Shown here: one piece after another, positions 4,463 to 12,027 of the stretch | Position numbering within the stretch: position 1 is the first letter of the stretch | Layout of the letters: every line of letters begins with the position of its first letter | Virus record (IMG/VR): IMGVR_UViG_2703718831_000001 | Origin: a virus | Lineage: Duplodnaviria; Heunggongvirae; Uroviricota; Caudoviricetes | Direction: 5' to 3' (one strand) | Length of the DNA stretch: 23,294 nucleotides | Notes under the pieces: model-generated | The model's input: the letters and a program-made list of their open reading frames with translations, nothing else | What the model was told of the DNA's origin: nothing | Database searches by the model: none | Made by a program: the position numbers and the translations under genes

Positions 4463-5289
4463 AAGAAATGCACCACGGAATTCATCATTTCCATGGGACG
4501 CCTGTCTGGGGAAGTGCTGGCGACGTTCATCGTATTGCGGTGAGCGGAGCTGGCGCTTTCGTCTCCTATGTACGACCAGATCAGATTGCGGCGTCCATTC
4601 AGCACGCTCAGGTCGTCGGCATTGATAACGGCGCATTTTCTGCATGGGTGCGTGGGCTAAAAATTAACTGGAGTGATTTTTATAAATGGCTCCTGAACTA
4701 TTACCACCATCCTAAGGTCGCTTTTTTTGTCATTCCTGATGTTGTGGACGGAGGTGAACGTGACAATGATGCCCTGATAAACGAAGTTCCGAAAATGTTC
4801 TACGGGAAGGCAACTCCCGTCTGGCATCTGCACGAGTCAATCGATCGGCTTATCGAGCTATGTCGTGAATGGCCTCGTGTCTGCTTTGGATCGTCTGGTG
4901 AATATGCGGCTATCAGAACTGCGCACTGGCATCGTCGTATGCAGGACGCTTTTGAAGCAATTTATTGCCGACACAATTTCAAAACAGCTGTTCATGGTTT
5001 GCGCATGCTTGACGGTCGTGTGTTGGGAAATTACCCACTGGCGACTGCCGACAGTACAAATCTTGCCTGCAATGTCCCCAAATTTAATAGCAAATATCCT
5101 GAGCTGACGCGGGCTATTCAGGAGGCTGAGTATTCGCGCAATCTGACGGAAAAGGAGCTGAAAGCTGTCATTCTGAAAAACCGTTGCGCAATTTTAAAAG
5201 GTGCAATTGAAGCTGTTCGCCCACCTTCAGTTTCTGATTGGCTGTCGAATGGTTTGCAGCCTTCACAGCTCGAACTGGAGATTGCGTAA
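4459..5289 (+). CDS. Unassigned 276-aa protein; possibly a TGT-fold (DpdA-like) DNA transglycosylase
   Basis: ORF coupled to dam (GTGA overlap) and to gene A (TAATG overlap). Motifs in TGT-like order: VGIDNGAFS (cf. TDSGGFQ), [25 protein letters not shown] (cf. GIDMFDCV). No C-terminal zinc motif. The family call rests on motif resemblance only. Confidence 0.35.
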
Positions 5290-7661
5290 TGAACTACAGC
5301 TATTCCTGGAATGCTGAGAAAAAAGCAATCAATCCTTACGTAGAGACAGAAGAGCAATCTTCAGTTTCTGCGCTTTCAAACCTGATCGCTCTGTACGCTG
5401 CCGATAACGAGCAGGAACAGCTGCGCCGCGAGGCACTGAGTGATCAGGTCTGGGAGCGTTATTTCTTTAATGAATCCCGTGATCCTGTCCAGCGCGAAAT
5501 GGAGCAGGATAAGCTCATTAGTCGGGCAAAGCTGGCGCATGAGCAGCAGCGTTTTAATCCAGATATGGTCATTCTGGCGGACGTCAATGCCCAGCCTTCC
5601 CATATCAGCAAGCCACTGATGCAACGTATTGAATACTTCAGCAGCCTGGGCAGGCCAAAGGCTTATTCCCGCTATTTGCGTGAGACGATTAAGCCATGTC
5701 TGGAACGGCTGGAGCATGTACGCGACTGTCAGCTATCCACTTCTTTTCGCTTTATGGCAAGCCATGAAGGGCTGGACGGCCTGCTGATCCTGCCTGAAAT
5801 GAGTCAGGATCAGGTGAAACGCCTGTCCACCCTGGTAGCTGCGCATATGAGCATGTGCCTTGATGCAGCTTGTGGCGATTTGTATGTCACCGATGACGTT
5901 AAGCCAGAAGAAATCCGCAAGACATGGGAAAAGGTGGCAGCGGAAACCCTGCGTCTGGATGTCATCCCGCCTGCGTTTGAGCAACTCCGCCGGAAAAGAA
6001 ACCGCCGTAAACCCGTGCCCTATGAACTCATTCCGGGTTCGCTGGCGCGTATGTTGTGCGCTGACTGGTGGTACCGGAAATTATGGAAGATGCGTTGCGA
6101 ATGGCGGGAAGAGCAGTTGCGTGCTGTCTGCCTGGTCAGCAAAAAAGCATCTCCCTATGTCAGCTATGAAGCCGTGATGCATAAACGTGAGCAGCGCCGT
6201 AAGTCGCTGGAGTTTTTTCGTTCTCATGAACTGGTGAACGAAGACGGCGACACGCTGGACATGGAGGATGTGGTAAACGCCAGCAGCAGCAACCCTGCGC
6301 ATCGCCGCAATGAGATGATGGCCTGTGTTAAAGGCCTGGAGCTTATCGCGGAAATGCGCGGTGACTGCGCCGTTTTCTACACCATCACCTGTCCGTCACG
6401 TTTCCATTCCACGCTAAATAATGGCAGGCCCAACCCAACTTGGACAAATGCGACGGTAAGACAAAGCAGTGATTATCTGGTCGGCATGTTTGCTGCATTT
6501 CGTAAGGCGATGCACAAAGCCGGATTGCGGTGGTATGGCGTGCGGGTGGCTGAGCCGCATCATGACGGTACAGTTCACTGGCACCTGTTGTGTTTTATGC
6601 GCAAAAAAGACCGCCGCGCCATCACTGCATTACTGCGTAAGTTTGCCATCCGTGAAGACCGTGAGGAACTGGGCAATAACACTGGGCCGCGCTTTAAGTC
6701 TGAGTTGATTAACCCGCGCAAAGGTACGCCAACAAGCTACATCGCGAAATACATCAGTAAGAACATTGACGGGCGTGGTCTGGCTGGCGAGATCAGCAAG
6801 GAAACGGGGAAATCCCTGCGTGATAATGCTGAATACGTTAATGCCTGGGCGTCTCTGCATCGTGTTCAGCAATTCCGCTTCTTTGGCATTCCGGGGCGTC
6901 AGGCTTACCGTGAACTGCGATTGCTGGCTGGTCAGGCGGCAAGGCAACAGGGGGACAAAAAAGCAGGTGCGCCGGTACTGGATAACCCGCGCCTTGATGC
7001 CATCCTGGCTGCTGCTGATGCTGGTTGTTTTGCCACCTACATCATGAAGCAGGGCGGCGTACTGGTTCCCCGCAAATATCACCTCATCAGAACCGCTTAT
7101 GAAATCAACGAAGAGCCGACCGCCTATGGCGATCACGGCATTCGTATTTATGGCATCTGGTCACCTATTGCAGAGGGCAAGATCTGCACTCATGCCGTGA
7201 AGTGGAAAATGGTTCGTAAGGCCGTTGATGTTCAGGAGGCGGCAGCCGACCAGGGCGCTTGCGCCCCTTGGACTCGTGGCAATAACTGTCCCCTTGCTGA
7301 AAATTTGTACCAACAAGGGAAAGACAAATCAGCTGATGGAGATACCAGAACGGATATCACCCGCATGGATGACAAGGAGTTGCACGATTACCTGCACAGT
7401 ATGAGCAAAAAAGAGCGCCGGGAACTGGCAGCAAGGTTACGCCTGGTGAAACCGAAACGGCGTAAAGACTACAAACAGCGAATTACAGACCATCAGCGAC
7501 TGCAGCTCGTGTATGAACTGAAGTCCAGGGGATTTGATGGCAGCGAGAAAGAGGTCGATTTACTCCTTCGCGGCGGCAGTATTCCGTCAGGAGCAGGCCT
7601 GCGTATCTTCTATCGGAACCAGCGTTTGCAGGAAGATGATAAGTGGCGAAACCTGTATTAA
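5289..7661 (+). CDS. A: Replication initiation protein A (rolling-circle nicking endonuclease), P2 gpA family
   Basis: 790-aa ORF from the ATG at 5289 (overlapping the upstream stop). Contains an HUH-type metal motif ([13 protein letters not shown]) and a catalytic-tyrosine motif (SYIAKYISK). Size and position match P2/186 gene A. Confidence 0.9.
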
Positions 7662-7753
7662 TTACGCGGGTTAACAATTCGTGCTCTTAATAATACCAGG
7701 CATATCAGGCTGATGAGCGTAAAAAAACGTTTTACATCAGTAAGATTATTATA

Positions 7754-7773
7754 TACTGTAAATATAAACAGTG
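7754..7773. promoter_or_regulatory. LexA operator (SOS box) TACTGT-N8-ACAGTG overlapping a sigma70-like promoter
   Basis: Perfect CTGT-N8-ACAG core (7756-7771) with an AT-rich spacer (AAATATAA). A TTTACA -35-like hexamer lies at 7731-7736, and the module's first ATG is about 40 bp downstream. Confidence 0.65.
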
Positions 7774-7813
7774 GTTATGTATACAGTATTGCTTTGGTGT
7801 CATAGGAGGAAAG

Positions 7814-8002
7814 ATGCAGGACTATTTTTTGGAGTCTTTGAAGCTCCAGCGCATTGATTTTTTTCTTAAGCTTGTAGCGGCTAGTGAGTGTAGTGATGAA
7901 GAGAAGGGGCTGGCTCTGCAGTGGGTTTCTGAACTGACAGATGAACTCATGGCAAAAATCAGAACCCACGAATACAACCGCTCAATGGATGTCATCAGCT
8001 GA
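7814..8002 (+). CDS. Small SOS-module protein; possible N-terminal part of a Tum-like antirepressor
   Basis: 62-aa ORF with AGGAGGA RBS, directly downstream of the LexA box. It is in a different frame from, and overlaps the open upstream extension of, the DinI-like ORF. Confidence 0.4.
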   Translation: MQDYFLESLKLQRIDFFLKLVAASECSDEEKGLALQWVSELTDELMAKIRTHEYNRSMDVIS

Positions 8003-8012
8003 GGTGACTTTT

Positions 8013-8246
8013 ATGCGCATTGAAATAATGATCGATAAAGAGCAGAAGATTAGCCAGTCTACACTGGACGCCCTTGAATCCGAGCTTTACCGCAATCTGC
8101 GCCCCCTGTATCCCAAAACGGTAATTCGTATCCGCAAAGGTAGCTCTAACGGTGTGGAACTTACCGGATTGCAACTGGACGAAGAAAGAAAACAAGTGAT
8201 GAAAATTATGCAGAAGGTGTGGGAAGACGACAGCTGGTTGCATTAA
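8013..8246 (+). CDS. DinI-family protein (C-terminal domain type of 186 Tum)
   Basis: 77-aa ORF starting MRIEIMIDKEQ and ending KIMQKVWEDDSWLH, matching the DinI pattern (MRIEV...ETWE..DW). GAGGTG RBS. Confidence 0.7.
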   Translation: MRIEIMIDKEQKISQSTLDALESELYRNLRPLYPKTVIRIRKGSSNGVELTGLQLDEERKQVMKIMQKVWEDDSWLH

Positions 8247-8457
8247 GAAACGTTGCTGGCGTCTGAACCTGCTTCTGGCGTCAGCAAGGTTGAACCGCGA
8301 GCCTTGAGAGGCGTTAACCATAAGTAAAAAGACAGTAATCACTTGATTATCTATCAGGGCGAGACCTATGCTGCACTTTTAGTTATAACTCATAATGTAT
8401 TGAAATTATTAGAATATATGTCATTCTTAAAATGTGTATGCTTATCAAGGAGCAAGA

Positions 8458-9330
8458 ATGAAACGTGGCATTGTAGCTAATCCTAATGAAATGAGTTTTC
8501 ATAGAAATAATAGTACGGTCTATCTTGGGGCAGGTTTAACTGAGCAGGATATTAATTATTTCTGCTTTTACTGGGATGATGTGGTTATTCTAGATAGTGA
8601 AAATATTCACTCGATTGTGCCTAAAGAAAAAGAATTATTAGATAATGGGGTATTACGTAGACCTATTATGAAACATGATGGTATGCTGAATATCCAAGAC
8701 TTTCCATTTTTATATACGGAATTTCAGTTGCAGACATTGGATGAATTCAGGAAGAACGAGCCTGCTACTTATTGGCACTTTCATCAAACAGGGGAGAATT
8801 TAATATATGATAAAGAACAGAAAACGGCCCTTCAGTTGAGATTGGAGTTGTTTAATGTTCTGAGAATTCCTGATAAAGATGCTCATATAGAAGATATATT
8901 ACGTTTTAAAGATGATTGTCAGGATGATCTTAATGCGTTACATGAGTACTTAGAAAAACTGTATACTGAAGTCCTTTATTCTAGAGACCCTAATCTAACG
9001 AGGGCTAAAAATTTTTCTTTATTACAAGAGGCTGTAGTTAATCTTGATAAAGCTATCGAAGGGAAATGGAGAAATCCTATCAGAATGGGAGTCAAAGTTA
9101 ATCCAGAAGTAGATGGTGGGCAGGTTATGGAATTTTTAAAACCGTTGTACCATGCTGCTATTGCTGGTGATTCAGGCGGTATTATTCCCGGTATGGTTAC
9201 AGCCTTGGCAACCGCAATTCCAAGTTTTATAAAATTCCAACCAGAATGGGTGGGCTTTAGAGATAAGGGGCCTAAAGAATTAGCTTATCTTACCAAAGCA
9301 ACGCATAAGGGGTTGATTAAGAGAGCTTAA
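8458..9330 (+). CDS. Hypothetical 291-aa cargo protein in the gene A-cos accessory locus; contains a GDSGG motif
   Basis: ORF from the ATG at 8458 with AGGAG RBS, in a markedly AT-rich segment unlike the phage backbone. No recognisable family. C-terminal AIAGDSGGIIPG resembles a serine-hydrolase nucleophile motif. Confidence 0.6.
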   Translation: MKRGIVANPNEMSFHRNNSTVYLGAGLTEQDINYFCFYWDDVVILDSENIHSIVPKEKELLDNGVLRRPIMKHDGMLNIQDFPFLYTEFQLQTLDEFRKNEPATYWHFHQTGENLIYDKEQKTALQLRLELFNVLRIPDKDAHIEDILRFKDDCQDDLNALHEYLEKLYTEVLYSRDPNLTRAKNFSLLQEAVVNLDKAIEGKWRNPIRMGVKVNPEVDGGQVMEFLKPLYHAAIAGDSGGIIPGMVTALATAIPSFIKFQPEWVGFRDKGPKELAYLTKATHKGLIKRA

Positions 9331-9432
9331 GGCATTTTAATCGATTTTCGCAACTATATTCCTTCGTAACCACACAAGTGCATGACTATGCCGCATGAAT
9401 CCGCATGATCGTTTGAGGATCGTTTTAGCTGA

Positions 9433-9460
9433 GGCCCGCTAGGAATGGCGGGCCTTTGCT
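9433..9460 (+). terminator. GC-rich hairpin followed by a short T-tract (putative terminator)
   Basis: GGCCCGC (9433-9439) / GCGGGCC (9448-9454) perfect 7-bp stem with an 8-nt loop, followed by TTTGCTT. Confidence 0.45.
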
Positions 9461-9502
9461 TATGTCATGCAGGCGCATGAAAACCACTACATAAAGCGGG
9501 CA

Positions 9503-9521
9503 GGCGTGGCGGGGATACGAG
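9503..9521. other. Candidate cos cohesive-end sequence (GGCGTGGCGGGGATACGAG)
   Basis: The first 13 nt match my recollection of the 186/P2 cohesive ends (GGCGTGGCGGGGAAAGCAT / GGCGAGGCGGGGAAAGCAC). It lies in a GC-rich island between two AT-rich cargo segments, with gene Q oriented toward it. It is about 1.5 kb from Q, farther than in P2. Confidence 0.35.
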
Positions 9522-9660
9522 CGCGCGTTGTGGCTTGCAGCGGTGATTCTTTACATAGTGTTATCTTGAATTTATTGTAGCATTTTCGTAACAAACTAAG
9601 GTTCTTCGATTGCATAGATAGGAAAAAGTGTTTGTTTGTTAGTCACTGCTTGATTACACT

Positions 9661-9681
9661 CGTCTACTCTTGAAGTAGACG
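9661..9681. promoter_or_regulatory. Perfect 8-bp inverted repeat CGTCTACT-N5-AGTAGACG upstream of the three-gene cargo operon
   Basis: Palindrome ending about 57 bp upstream of the 9738 start codon: candidate operator or RNA hairpin. Confidence 0.35.
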
Positions 9682-9737
9682 ATAGGTATTCGCTAGCACT
9701 TTAGGGTAATCAAACAACCTGTAAAGAGAGGATTATT

Positions 9738-10310
9738 GTGCAGGTAGTTCATATAGGGTTTCATAACTGCCTTAATCGTGGCAGTTATGAGACGATACGG
9801 CAAAGCGTACCCTTTTTAAGCCGTTCAGGCCCTAAACAATGGTTAACTCAAGGTTACTATTTTTGGACTGATGACCCATACTGGGCTCATCAGTGGAACG
9901 AAGGTCATGATACGGTGATTAGTGAATTTTCTATCACCTTTGATTCAAAGGATGAGTTGCTTGATTTGGTTGGAAATGCTCGAGATATCAGGCAATTTGA
10001 AGCTATGCGTCAGAAAGTTGCCAGTACTTTGACTCGAATGAGCGCCTTGCATATCACAGTCAATCAGGTCATTAGCTTTTTTAGAGAGCTCGAGCAATCT
10101 GATGATTTTAAAGGCGTATTTCCATATGCTGCTGTTAAGGCACAAGATAGTACGAAAGTGTCTAATCTTATAAGACTTAACTTTGTAGATGAGCGCCCAG
10201 AACAGATGGTTTCATTTACCCGTCAGCAAATGTGTGTTTATGAACATGCTCGAGGTAAGATAGAGTTTAGAAGATTTATCTTTCCAGAGCATTTCTGTGA
10301 GAAGGATTAA
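9738..10310 (+). CDS. Hypothetical protein, first gene of a three-gene cargo operon
   Basis: 190-aa ORF with GTG start and AGAGAGGA RBS 5 nt upstream. AT-rich. No recognisable motif. Confidence 0.55.
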   Translation: MQVVHIGFHNCLNRGSYETIRQSVPFLSRSGPKQWLTQGYYFWTDDPYWAHQWNEGHDTVISEFSITFDSKDELLDLVGNARDIRQFEAMRQKVASTLTRMSALHITVNQVISFFRELEQSDDFKGVFPYAAVKAQDSTKVSNLIRLNFVDERPEQMVSFTRQQMCVYEHARGKIEFRRFIFPEHFCEKD

Positions 10311-10319
10311 GGAGGAAAA

Positions 10320-10553
10320 ATGCTTTCCTTTGAACAAAGAATGGCCTTACTTAACAAGGCATTACAGCAGTATACTCCTGAGTCGCTTTATGAAAAATTA
10401 AGCTCGTACCCGGCTTATGGACCAACAATCGTAAGCTACGAGCTTCCAAGCTCTGAAGGGTTCATTACATTGAGACCACGTCTGATCAATCATGCTGCTG
10501 AACGTTCAGTGGATTTCTTTTCAGATGATACTGAATTGGATTTAGCGGCCTGA
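10320..10553 (+). CDS. Hypothetical small protein, second gene of the cargo operon
   Basis: 77-aa ORF with a strong GGAGG RBS, 9 nt after the upstream stop. Confidence 0.5.
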   Translation: MLSFEQRMALLNKALQQYTPESLYEKLSSYPAYGPTIVSYELPSSEGFITLRPRLINHAAERSVDFFSDDTELDLAA

Positions 10554-10555
10554 CG

Positions 10556-10945
10556 ATGAAACTAAGATTACGGGATAATACTGTTACTCGACTGTTGTTT
10601 GTCGATGCTGAAGGGCGCAAAATCGAATCTGGTTTTGCGCTTCGATTTAAGCCCATTTTTGATGAAAATCCGCGCGAATTTTCAGTATTGTTTGATTTTT
10701 ATTACATTACTGAGAATGATCGGGCATTACGAGTCGAGTTTCAAAGTGTTTTTGAAACAGATAAAGACATTGACGATTCTTTTAAAGAATCGAAGTTTCC
10801 AGTTGTTAATGCTCCTGCGATATCGTTCCCGTTTTTACGTTCGTTTGTTGCCAATTTTTTGATGACAAGTGGGTATACACCGATCCTGCTTCCTAGCTTT
10901 AACTTTACAACTTTTGAACAGGATATCGGGAAGTTTCCTAACTGA
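10556..10945 (+). CDS. Hypothetical protein, third gene of the cargo operon
   Basis: 129-aa ORF whose ATG lies 2 nt after the upstream stop (TGACGATG), followed directly by a terminator. Confidence 0.5.
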   Translation: MKLRLRDNTVTRLLFVDAEGRKIESGFALRFKPIFDENPREFSVLFDFYYITENDRALRVEFQSVFETDKDIDDSFKESKFPVVNAPAISFPFLRSFVANFLMTSGYTPILLPSFNFTTFEQDIGKFPN

Positions 10946-10946
10946 G

Positions 10947-10976
10947 AAAAGGGCTATGTTTAGCCCTTTTTTATTA
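10947..10976. terminator. Rho-independent terminator, likely bidirectional (cargo operon and gene Q)
   Basis: GGGCTA / TAGCCC stem (10951-10966) flanked by AAAA upstream and TTTTTTATT downstream, between convergent ORFs. Confidence 0.6.
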
Positions 10977-10983
10977 AGTTGAT

Positions 10984-12027
10984 TCAATTTTTATCTAAGC
11001 TCATGGTGTAAGGCTCGAAGCGGATCACTTCTTCACCAAGCCAGTCGTTAAGCTCCTGTAGCCTTTTCTGTAGTGGGATAAGTTCGTTGCGAACAAAAAC
11101 TTTGCTGGCTTTCTCTACATCCCCAAAACCCCCAACATTATTCGGCATAATCCCCATCATCTGTGGCGGAACACGATGCGCGGCCATCATGTCATCACGA
11201 CTCACGTTCTTGATGTTCAGAAATTCATCTTTCGCTGCGACTTCTGACAACGGGATGATCTGAAGCCCGTCCTTTTTGCCGTTAGGCGAGTACATAAACA
11301 GGTTGCGGAAGTTACCCGGTCCTTTGGCGCTTTTCATCGCGTGGCGGAGGTTGTTCACGTCCTCCTGGTTCTGCGCGGCATCGGTCATGTACATGATGAA
11401 GCCAGCATGACTGCCGTTTATGTAATACTTTCGACGGAACAGCGTGGCGGACTCATTGAGCAGGGCGGACGGAATAGCAGAAAGATAGCCGGGCAGGCCA
11501 TAGATCTCCTGATTTATGTCCGGTTCCATCAGATGGAAAATGCTGCCTTTCGTGAACTGATACGGCTGCGTGGTCATGCCGTATTGCACAAACCAGTAGG
11601 TATCCAGGTCTAACCCGCGTCGGGTGTATTTTGCCAGCGCAGGCTCAAGGGCGATAACTTCACCGAAGCGGTTAGTGCGTTTCTCCAGGTAGGCGTTACC
11701 AAATACCAGATAGTCCTGCACAAAACGCGAAAAAGCCTGCTGGCTGAGCAGCGGGTGAGGGATGTAGGTGCTGGTCAGAATGTTGCATTTCACCGCAATT
11801 GGTGAACTGTGATGCACGGCAGCGCGGAAGGTGCGCGCCAGTCCGTCAAAGCTGACAGGAGGCTCATACCAGCGATCTGTCTGTACGCATTCCACATAGT
11901 CCAGCAGTTCGCGGCGGTCAAGTACAGGAACGGGATCACCGAAGCTGAATGCTTCGGCTGAAGTCTGGCTTTTATGCTTGAGCTGATTCGTCGCCGCAGC
12001 GCGGTTTTTCTTACTCTTTCCCATCAA
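10984..12027 (-). CDS. Q: Portal protein, P2 gpQ family
   Basis: 347-aa ORF, same size as P2 gpQ, coupled to the upstream terminase ATPase gene and lying beside the cos-like region. Confidence 0.85.
   Translation of the reverse strand: MMGKSKKNRAAATNQLKHKSQTSAEAFSFGDPVPVLDRRELLDYVECVQTDRWYEPPVSFDGLARTFRAAVHHSSPIAVKCNILTSTYIPHPLLSQQAFSRFVQDYLVFGNAYLEKRTNRFGEVIALEPALAKYTRRGLDLDTYWFVQYGMTTQPYQFTKGSIFHLMEPDINQEIYGLPGYLSAIPSALLNESATLFRRKYYINGSHAGFIMYMTDAAQNQEDVNNLRHAMKSAKGPGNFRNLFMYSPNGKKDGLQIIPLSEVAAKDEFLNIKNVSRDDMMAAHRVPPQMMGIMPNNVGGFGDVEKASKVFVRNELIPLQKRLQELNDWLGEEVIRFEPYTMSLDKN

Follow-up and report, generated by a model that had tools for sequence, protein, structure and literature searches.

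In the P2/186-like prophage considered here, the interval that separates replication gene A from portal gene Q is very probably an old/tin-type hotspot carrying two AT-rich cassettes, of which the second is identified as cmdTAC, a characterised anti-phage system, and the first holds a single gene of the DUF6236 family. The two cassettes would have been received in separate acquisitions, with a 151-bp remnant of the phage backbone left between them. As the hotspot, its modular swapping, CmdTAC and the CmdTAC mechanism are all already published, the island should not be pursued further as if it were a new defence system.

Position, composition and flanks of the island

Regarding base composition, the GC content of positions 8317-10980 is 0.39 against 0.51 for the window, i.e. 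the whole stretch of 23,294 nucleotides that was analysed (0.388 for 8340-10980 against 0.513). In 500-bp windows, it runs at 0.34-0.43 over 8251-11000, where the minima of the whole 23-kb window fall, compared with 0.52-0.55 in gene A and 0.52-0.60 on the packaging side. This profile bears out the AT-rich island described in the first-pass annotation, of which two details had to be revised: the left edge, placed at 8340, moves to 8317 where the first cassette begins, and the low GC is not uniform, since a piece with a GC content of 0.563 at 9377-9527 splits the island in two. Of note, the drop in GC begins at about 7500 already, within the module formed by a 62-aa ORF and a dinI-like gene.

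The location, proposed to lie between gene A (plus an SOS module) and the portal gene, is corroborated on both sides, with replication gene A on the left (Phage_GPA, E 6.7e-128) and the portal gene together with a P-type (gpP-type) terminase gene, on the minus strand, on the right; the integrase, CI, CII and Fil genes are located upstream in the prophage. The finding of cmdTAC at this place likewise upholds the view of an old/tin-type hotspot carrying anti-phage cargo. In the left flank, the dinI-like gene matches Pfam DinI (1.3e-22) and phrog_698 (3.6e-38), and both its product and the 62-aa protein are known in RefSeq as identical sequences (WP_001217575 and WP_001154434, respectively). A LexA box, CTGTAAATATAAACAG, is found upstream of this module at 7756-7771 as the sole exact match in the window, and the module is predicted to be LexA-controlled.

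The island itself contains four ORFs on the plus strand, one solitary (8434/8458-9330) and three tightly packed (9738-10945), in agreement with the layout of one plus three genes, with a terminator each, that had been proposed. The first hairpin (9431-9456), downstream of the DUF6236 gene, is GC-rich with 11 pairs and is followed by TTGCTT. The second, at about 10947-10972, consists of an A-run, a hairpin and a T-run (AAAAGGGCTATGTTTAGCCCTTTTTT), for which the sole match in Rfam was a sub-threshold terminator-like sRNA. The features are as follows.

7814-8246, plus strand: backbone left flank, non-cargo (62-aa ORF 7814-8002, dinI-like gene 8013-8246)
8317-9376, plus strand: cassette 1 (slot 1), DUF6236 gene with its upstream region, an AT-rich insertion with GC 0.355
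8458-9330, plus strand: DUF6236 coding sequence, 290 aa (ATG at 8458, AAGGAG 6 nt upstream; Pfam PF19749)
9377-9527, plus strand: non-coding backbone remnant of 151 bp, GC 0.563, carrying the hairpin terminator 9431-9456
9528-9737, plus strand: cmdTAC upstream region, left end of cassette 2, with a promoter-like site and the ribosome-binding site GAGAGGA
9738-10310, plus strand: cmdT, 190-aa toxin, predicted mRNA ADP-ribosyltransferase (PADLOC PD-T4-9_A)
10320-10553, plus strand: cmdA, 77-aa antitoxin and folding helper by family (PADLOC PD-T4-9_B, 5.1e-39, residues 1-77 of 77)
10556-10945, plus strand: cmdC, 129-aa SecB-like chaperone and capsid sensor by family (PADLOC PD-T4-9_C, 1.1e-60)
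10947-10972, no strand assigned: putative bidirectional hairpin terminator between the cmdC stop codon (10943-10945) and the end of Q (10984)
10984-12027, minus strand: portal gene Q, backbone right flank (Pfam Phage_portal, 2.9e-18; RefSeq annotation of near-identical prophages)

The cmdTAC operon

On the basis of its family matches, the operon at 9738-10945 is assigned to cmdTAC (PD-T4-9). CmdT matches the PADLOC model PDLC04069 PD-T4-9_A at E 2.8e-96 (318.6 bits) over 188 of its 190 residues, residues 2-189 being aligned to positions 3-190 of the 191 in the model, and both CmdT and CmdA are identical to RefSeq proteins (WP_061089969 and WP_061089970, respectively). CmdC falls 0.8 bit below the cut-off of 26 for Pfam SecB (1.7e-5, 25.2 bits) and its matches to NCBIfam SecB are partial; RefSeq names it SecB. 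Neither CmdT nor CmdC has a relative in the PDB as searched by sequence. The three genes are co-directional and stand in the order toxin, antitoxin, chaperone, spaced by 9 and 2 nt. The cassette as a whole (9528-10980) has a GC content of 0.393, and a promoter scan placed a promoter-like site, TTTACA-17-TATTGT, at 9550-9578.

The four ORFs had initially been considered as unassignable to any family, which does not hold: scans of the four proteins against Pfam, PHROGs, NCBIfam and PADLOC returned CmdT, CmdA and CmdC with full-length PADLOC matches, and placed the fourth protein in Pfam DUF6236. Regarding the proposal that the island is the site of a novel defence system, the anti-phage cargo is retained and the novelty is not, as cmdTAC has been published at this same locus, three of the ORFs being CmdTAC and the fourth being listed in an earlier survey (Rousset et al., 2022, Table S5).

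CmdTAC, or PD-T4-9, was found in the P2-like prophage of E. coli ECOR22, in the interval bounded by the genes for the replication endonuclease and for the portal (Vassallo et al., 2022, PMC9519451), and was then characterised as a toxin-antitoxin-chaperone system of abortive infection whose SecB-like chaperone senses the capsid protein of T-even phages (Vassallo, Doering and Laub, 2024, PMC11618068). The toxin CmdT ADP-ribosylates mRNA, its fold is similar to that of exotoxin A by the authors' predictions, and Y41 is catalytic within an H-Y-[E/D/Q] triad (PMC11618068). In the protein encoded here, residue 41 is also a Tyr, within GYYFW. The likeness to the ECOR22 system further extends to the full-length match of all three families, the T-A-C gene order, the E. 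coli host, the locus and the SecB-like third gene. Proteins RCP66309-11 of ECOR22 and the alleles found here (WP_061089969-71) were compared through their membership of a tight cluster (at least 92.7% identity) and of the PADLOC families. The prophages themselves differ, the 62-aa neighbour being WP_001154434 here and WP_001154431 in ECOR22; as this is another allele, identity of the window with the ECOR22 prophage was rejected, and the result of the cmdTAC deletion in ECOR22, a strain on which T4 plates well, is consequently uninformative as to whether DUF6236 blocks T4.

From family membership and near-identity to the ECOR22 system, in which the mechanism was established, the following course can be expected. 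The chaperone CmdC would keep the antitoxin CmdA stable, and CmdA would both assist the folding of CmdT and neutralise it. Upon infection by a T-even phage, newly made major capsid protein would draw CmdC off the complex, ClpP would then degrade CmdA, and the free CmdT would ADP-ribosylate single-stranded mRNA at the N6 of adenine within GA dinucleotides, so that translation would stop and no phage would be produced. HigBAC and MqsRAC are other toxin-antitoxin-chaperone systems (Mets et al., 2024, preprint 10.1101/2024.02.24.581848), whose toxin and antitoxin families are unrelated to those of CmdTAC, where the toxin is an ADP-ribosyltransferase and where the antitoxin is also required for toxin folding.

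The DUF6236 gene and its possible function

The gene of the first cassette matches Pfam PF19749 at 1e-20 (74.6 bits for a cut-off of 26.2) and its product matches phrog_23128 at 4.6e-31; RefSeq sets the start at 8458 as well and applies the name 'DUF6236 family protein' to sequences that are identical to it or nearly so, and NCBIfam gave no match. Clustered at 50% identity, the family falls into about 1000 groups, which consist almost entirely of single-domain proteins of about 285 aa. Among complete E. coli genomes, 22 carry a near-identical copy of the gene. The lambdoid prophages of Klebsiella, Enterobacter and IMG/VR have their DUF6236 genes either in the interval from the lysis cassette to the terminase or behind the tail fibres, and those on Acinetobacter plasmids invariably have an AbiD/PD-T4-5-like HEPN gene as partner. 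The genes are AT-richer than their flanks in 60 of 60 loci and always lie at prophage or plasmid cargo sites. A scan of species-representative genomes for relatives yielded a single, uninformative locus, and a further search for homologues, started from the Acinetobacter protein, only three matches. Judged by such contexts, DUF6236 appears to be a widespread AT-rich prophage moron, and it would act independently of cmdTAC, as an autonomous moron expressed from the lysogen.

Structure searches give few handles on the protein. Searches of the PDB by sequence profile and with single sequences recovered no solved-structure relative, and Foldseek nothing at E <= 1e-3, its best matches, all weak, being CARF domains (E about 0.01, TM 0.25-0.37) and other Rossmann-like nucleotide binders. 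A Gly/Ala-rich hydrophobic segment at about residues 240-258 keeps its position in 90% of the relatives; it reaches a Kyte-Doolittle value of at least 1.6 in only 22% of them, and for this reason is not called a membrane helix. The protein may be built of a Rossmann/CARF-like, ligand-sensing N-terminal half and a helical C-terminal half that includes this segment. Likeness to the CARF-type sensor-effectors Csm6, Cad1 and Cam1 through these Foldseek matches, or to solitary Abi and exclusion genes of prophages through the occurrence of a lone gene, coding for about 290 aa, in the cargo positions of prophages, is a resemblance only. Besides, residues R3, D40, K151 and D177 are conserved, and in the relative LF4-1 the gene is frameshifted.

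The most likely role of DUF6236 would be to exclude other phages, or to abort their infection, as a single protein, and a role in defence is given somewhat less than an even chance. The argument is one of guilt by location only, since PADLOC, the PDB, Foldseek at a significant level and the literature lend no support: PADLOC-DB v2.0.0 returned no match to the protein at E <= 1, and among about 60 relatives only isolated matches at chance level (E >= 0.005), while Table S5 of Rousset et al. (2022, PMC9122126) lists the gene among P2-hotspot genes with empty result columns, outside of which a literature search found no mention of DUF6236, PF19749, phrog_23128 or four WP accessions.

The absence of PADLOC matches above chance level for the protein and 59 relatives, together with the want of a recognisable effector domain or fold, would also fit a moron with no anti-phage role, involved instead in lysogenic conversion, in counter-defence for the prophage or in the regulation of host physiology. 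Furthermore, the lambdoid lysis-terminase site also hosts non-defence morons, and in Enterobacter and Citrobacter the DUF6236 gene is often near a gene whose 485-aa product weakly matches glycosyltransferase-2. Such a function is a serious possibility, albeit short of probable. It has to contend with the AbiD-like HEPN partner of the Acinetobacter plasmids and with the company kept at the P2 hotspot, where most slot-mates and alternatives of DUF6236 are defence genes, whether known or candidate; a 2026 survey offers an analogy, in that six of the eight loci of unknown function tested, taken at random from the P4 satellite hotspot and not from P2, conferred protection (PMC13586616).

Returning to a defence function, it is conceivable, and tentatively put forward, that DUF6236 founds a new family of single-protein anti-phage systems, present as a moron at the cargo sites of two or more unrelated lineages of temperate phages, P2-like and lambdoid, paired with an AbiD-like HEPN gene on Acinetobacter plasmids, with no solved fold relative and perhaps with a CARF/Rossmann-like sensor. 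The gene is to be regarded as a reasonable defence candidate, one modest lead, which as a self-contained cassette of 1.2 kb with no known fold relative makes a cheap and well-defined entry for a phage panel.

Two slots on either side of a 151-bp spacer

Comparison with E. coli genomes and draft assemblies confirmed that conserved flanks enclose a variable content, as anticipated at first pass, and resolved this content into two slots; the flank is shared by 1261 genomes, and none of the 5426 complete E. coli genomes has this pair of cargoes. The 1060 bp of cassette 1 are absent from L001, a prophage with cmdTAC only that is elsewhere 98-99% identical, with breakpoints at 8316|8317 and 9376|9377; RefSeq also annotates, in this prophage, a short remnant of a pseudogene over the region corresponding to 9395-9580. 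The 151-bp spacer is found in 1333 of the 5426 complete E. coli genomes, and it is common to the DUF6236-only, the cmdTAC-only and all other configurations. Altogether, at least seven states of slot 2 and at least five of slot 1 were recorded with identical breakpoints. An identical CmdT co-occurs with a slot 1 that is empty or filled by DUF6236, a PDC-S31/DUF2971 gene, a 225-aa gene or an HNH gene. Reciprocally, DUF6236 (at least 99% DNA identity; identical protein for the copies in the draft assemblies of this comparison) is accompanied in slot 2 by cmdTAC, a ShosTA-like system, an AbiU-like AIPR gene, an LmuB-like ABC-3C system, a PIN gene, a 97-aa gene or nothing. From these comparisons, the two cassettes appear to assort independently, in both directions.

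This assortment also bears on the reading in which all four genes make up a single novel system and DUF6236 would serve cmdTAC as its sensor or regulator. In its favour, DUF6236 and cmdTAC adjoin each other in no fewer than nine independent assemblies or contigs (L009-L012, L014, L026, L086, L087 and L090). Against it, cmdTAC occurs without DUF6236 in three complete genomes. Moreover, a backbone remnant with a terminator stands between the two, and the published ECOR22 clone, which took 602 bp upstream of cmdT as native promoter, too short a stretch for an intact slot-1 gene, gave full defence alone. A four-gene system is thus highly improbable, and was rejected because DUF6236 and cmdTAC assort independently. 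That the island is spurious or decaying, its ORFs being due to chance or pseudogenes, could draw on the remnant in L001 and on the frameshift in LF4-1 but is more improbable still, given that all four ORFs are intact with a ribosome-binding site each, align from end to end with curated family models and belong to families kept across hundreds of clusters.

With two cassettes acquired separately, the island shows no essential difference from the cargo described for the P2 old/tin hotspot (Rousset et al., 2022, PMC9122126; NAR 2026, PMC13586616), with which it shares the A-Q site, the AT-rich cargo, the rapid modular swapping, the conserved flanks and the frequent presence of more than one system per locus. 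The spacer that defines the two slots is an addition of this analysis, no earlier description having been seen, and offers a simple sequence anchor with which to catalogue the cargo of this prophage lineage. On its right, the spacer ends at the left recombination boundary of slot 2, homology among the slot-2 configurations ending at 9527/9528.

The A-to-Q interval and its surroundings

The first-pass annotation had described 8340-10980 as an island distinctly AT-richer than the phage backbone, and the sliding-window GC profile bears this out: GC content falls to 0.34-0.43 over approximately 8250-11000, the minimum of the 23-kb window, whereas gene A lies at 0.52-0.55 and the packaging genes at 0.52-0.60; for 8340-10980 it is 0.388, vs. 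0.513 across the whole window. The island is bordered on the left by a replication protein matching Phage_GPA (E 6.7e-128), and on the right by minus-strand genes for a portal and a gpP-type terminase. These flanks, together with the integrase, CI, CII, Fil and Dam genes located farther left, identify the host element as a P2/186-like prophage and place the interval at its old/tin position, the tin/old-type hotspot between A and Q that had been proposed. The described layout of one stand-alone gene and one three-gene operon, each with its own terminator, also holds. These features, and one further ORF, are as follows:

4468-5289, plus strand: 273-aa ORF, between the Dam methylase gene and gene A
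8458-9330, plus strand: solitary ORF (DUF6236)
9431-9456: hairpin 3' of the solitary gene, then TTGCTT
9738-10310, plus strand: operon ORF 1 (cmdT)
10320-10553, plus strand: operon ORF 2 (cmdA)
10556-10945, plus strand: operon ORF 3 (cmdC)
about 10947-10972: A-run/stem/T-run hairpin 3' of the operon

Ahead of the island (7731-7773), an exact LexA box (CTGTAAATATAAACAG, 7756-7771), the sole exact match in the window, overlaps a promoter-like TTTACA...TATACT directly upstream of a 62-aa ORF and a dinI-like gene; from this arrangement the module looks SOS-controlled, in agreement with the initial description. As no clear terminator was found between the dinI-like module and the DUF6236 gene, read-through from the SOS module into the first cassette is possible. 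The 273-aa ORF, without Pfam or PADLOC match, is present in the window, in the relative MEI005 and in locus L012, and missing in most relatives, whose A gene (804 aa) comes immediately after the methylase; the Dam methylase-A gap may be a further small variable site. At the other end, the bidirectional terminator separating cmdC from Q coincides with a sub-threshold Rfam match to the Salmonella sRNA STnc320 (10939-10987, minus strand; 27.4 bits where the gathering score is 50), which most likely reflects the terminator hairpin only.

The cmdTAC operon

While the hotspot and gene layout had been read correctly, the interpretation of the island as a site of four unassignable ORFs and a novel system is only partly supported, as three of the genes are neither unassignable nor novel. 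Each of the three operon proteins gives a full-length match to its PADLOC model of PD-T4-9 (A, 2.8e-96; B, 5.1e-39; C, 1.1e-60), and family membership, gene order and locus together identify the operon as the already published CmdTAC. CmdT, CmdA and CmdC of the window are identical to RefSeq WP_061089969-71 and fall inside a tight cluster (at least 92.7% identity). The published catalytic Tyr41 is retained in CmdT, within GYYFW. As for CmdC, its similarity to SecB reaches 25.2 bits in Pfam (cut-off 26), with partial NCBIfam matches and the RefSeq name SecB.

PD-T4-9 was obtained by functional selection from E. coli ECOR22 (Vassallo 2022, PMC9519451) and later named CmdTAC; it lies in a P2-like prophage, flanked immediately by the replication endonuclease on one side and the portal on the other (PMC9519451; Vassallo, Doering and Laub 2024, PMC11618068), the locus matching that of the window operon. 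The same contig of ECOR22 appears in Rousset's table, its P2 hotspot including a SecB gene (Rousset 2022, PMC9122126), and a later preprint gives the P2 hotspot as the source of CmdTAC. In the published system, CmdA, stabilised by CmdC, folds and neutralises CmdT; the T4 major capsid protein displaces CmdC, ClpP removes CmdA, and CmdT ADP-ribosylates the N6 of adenine in GA dinucleotides of single-stranded mRNA, blocking translation (PMC11618068). Taken over from this literature, the same mechanism would apply to the window operon. Both the hotspot and CmdTAC are already known.

Two cassettes assorting independently

Breakpoints were obtained by BLAST of 7601-11100 against related loci. Locus L001, which carries cmdTAC without DUF6236, aligns over 7601-8316 and 9377-11100, and judging from this gap 8317-9376 is a discrete 1060-bp insertion; prophages with DUF6236 but other downstream cargo all align over 7601-9527/8. 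The expected conserved flanks with variable content are seen as sharp shared breakpoints around differing cargo. The AT-rich island itself is real, but its left edge lies at 8317 rather than 8340, and a backbone remnant splits it. This shared piece (9377-9527) is a 151-bp non-coding segment of normal GC (0.563) between the two slots, with a strong hairpin terminator within, found in 1333 of the 5426 complete E. coli genomes, and may serve either to anchor recombination or to terminate the early operon. In one relative, the matching region is a RefSeq pseudogene with an internal stop, and in others (L091, L092) gene callers predict a 61-aa ORF at the equivalent position.

By comparison of the loci, the two slots assort independently. 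Beside an identical CmdT, slot 1 is empty or holds DUF6236, a 372-aa PDC-S31/DUF2971 protein, a 225-aa protein or a 239-aa HNH protein. Beside DUF6236 (at least 99% DNA identity), slot 2 holds cmdTAC, a ShosTA-like DprA/PRTase pair, an AbiU-like AIPR protein, an LmuB-like ABC-3C set, a PIN protein or a 97-aa ORF; in other cases the slot is empty. Among the 5426 complete E. coli genomes, cmdTAC occurs in 3, DUF6236 in 22 and the pair in none; draft assemblies or viral contigs containing both number at least nine. Besides, the active published clone of the ECOR22 system includes just 602 bp upstream of cmdTAC (PMC9519451; PMC11618068), too short for an intact slot-1 gene, and cmdTAC therefore does not need DUF6236. 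Fast modular swapping at the P2 hotspot has already been described (NAR 2026, PMC13586616).

The other slot-1 occupants upstream of identical cmdTAC are candidates comparable to DUF6236, namely the PDC-S31/DUF2971 protein (L084, L089 and L091, 2512-3630), the 225-aa protein, which has no family match (L088, 2915-3592), and the HNH-like protein (L092, 2864-3583). Two relatives hint that cassette 1 is occasionally decayed or disrupted: in LF4-1 (L005, 5025-5897) a frameshift or stop breaks the DUF6236 gene into two ORFs, and in ZH177 (hit H4) an IS1 annotation underlies the match to the A-dinI-DUF6236 segment.

The DUF6236 protein and its family

The DUF6236 gene starts at ATG 8458, preceded by AAGGAG, and encodes 290 aa. 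Considered unassignable at first, this fourth ORF does match Pfam DUF6236 (74.6 bits, cut-off 26.2) and phrog_23128; no PADLOC or NCBIfam profile matches it. Sequence profiles against PDB and a BFVD search with the AlphaFold2 model (pLDDT 76.5, pTM 0.78) returned nothing, nor did Foldseek against PDB at E <= 1e-3. The weak top Foldseek matches are rich in CARF domains (Csm6, Cad1, Cami1, Cam1) and other Rossmann-like nucleotide binders, a model-based resemblance taken as a lead only. Clustered at 50% identity, the family falls into about 1000 groups; almost all of its proteins are single-domain and about 285 aa long, with conserved R3, G4, Y38-W39-D40, W106, P138, F150-K151, Y169, D177 and Y277; a hydrophobic Gly/Ala-rich segment (about 240-258) is conserved in position and seldom hydrophobic enough for a membrane helix. 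In Table S5 of Rousset 2022, this protein is P2-hotspot entry number 125, with 23 occurrences and empty result columns (PMC9122126), and no mention of the family was found in the paper texts searched.

Beyond the P2 hotspot, relatives that share about 30% identity, from Klebsiella, from Enterobacter and from 50-odd IMG/VR contigs, lie in lambdoid prophages, between the lysis cassette and HNH/terminase or after tail-fibre genes. A Hafnia relative adjoins an Old/AriA-like ATPase in a P2 remnant, and a Vibrio phage carries DUF6236 at the end of its genome. In small Acinetobacter plasmids (L094, 6934-8882; L096-L101), DUF6236 is always 20 nt downstream of a HEPN gene (345 aa, RiboL-PSP/Abi_2; PADLOC PD-T4-5 7e-10, AbiD 2e-5) and the backbones vary around the conserved pair, which may be a two-gene conflict module. 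The DUF6236 gene is AT-richer than its flanks in all 60 loci out of 60, by a mean of 13 GC points. This is the signature, and no proof of function, of a mobile moron keeping company with defence genes; a new family of single-gene defence systems is a tentative reading of DUF6236, plausible enough though not one we would favour, and of moderate interest if true.

In lambdoid prophages of the Enterobacter/Citrobacter type, a 485-aa protein recurs directly downstream of DUF6236 (L022-L024, L025, L050, L061, L065, L068, L069, L072, L077 and L081), without precomputed Pfam match or PADLOC match. Seven downstream neighbours in the locus survey show weak glycosyltransferase-2 matches, and we suspect these to be the same 485-aa protein.
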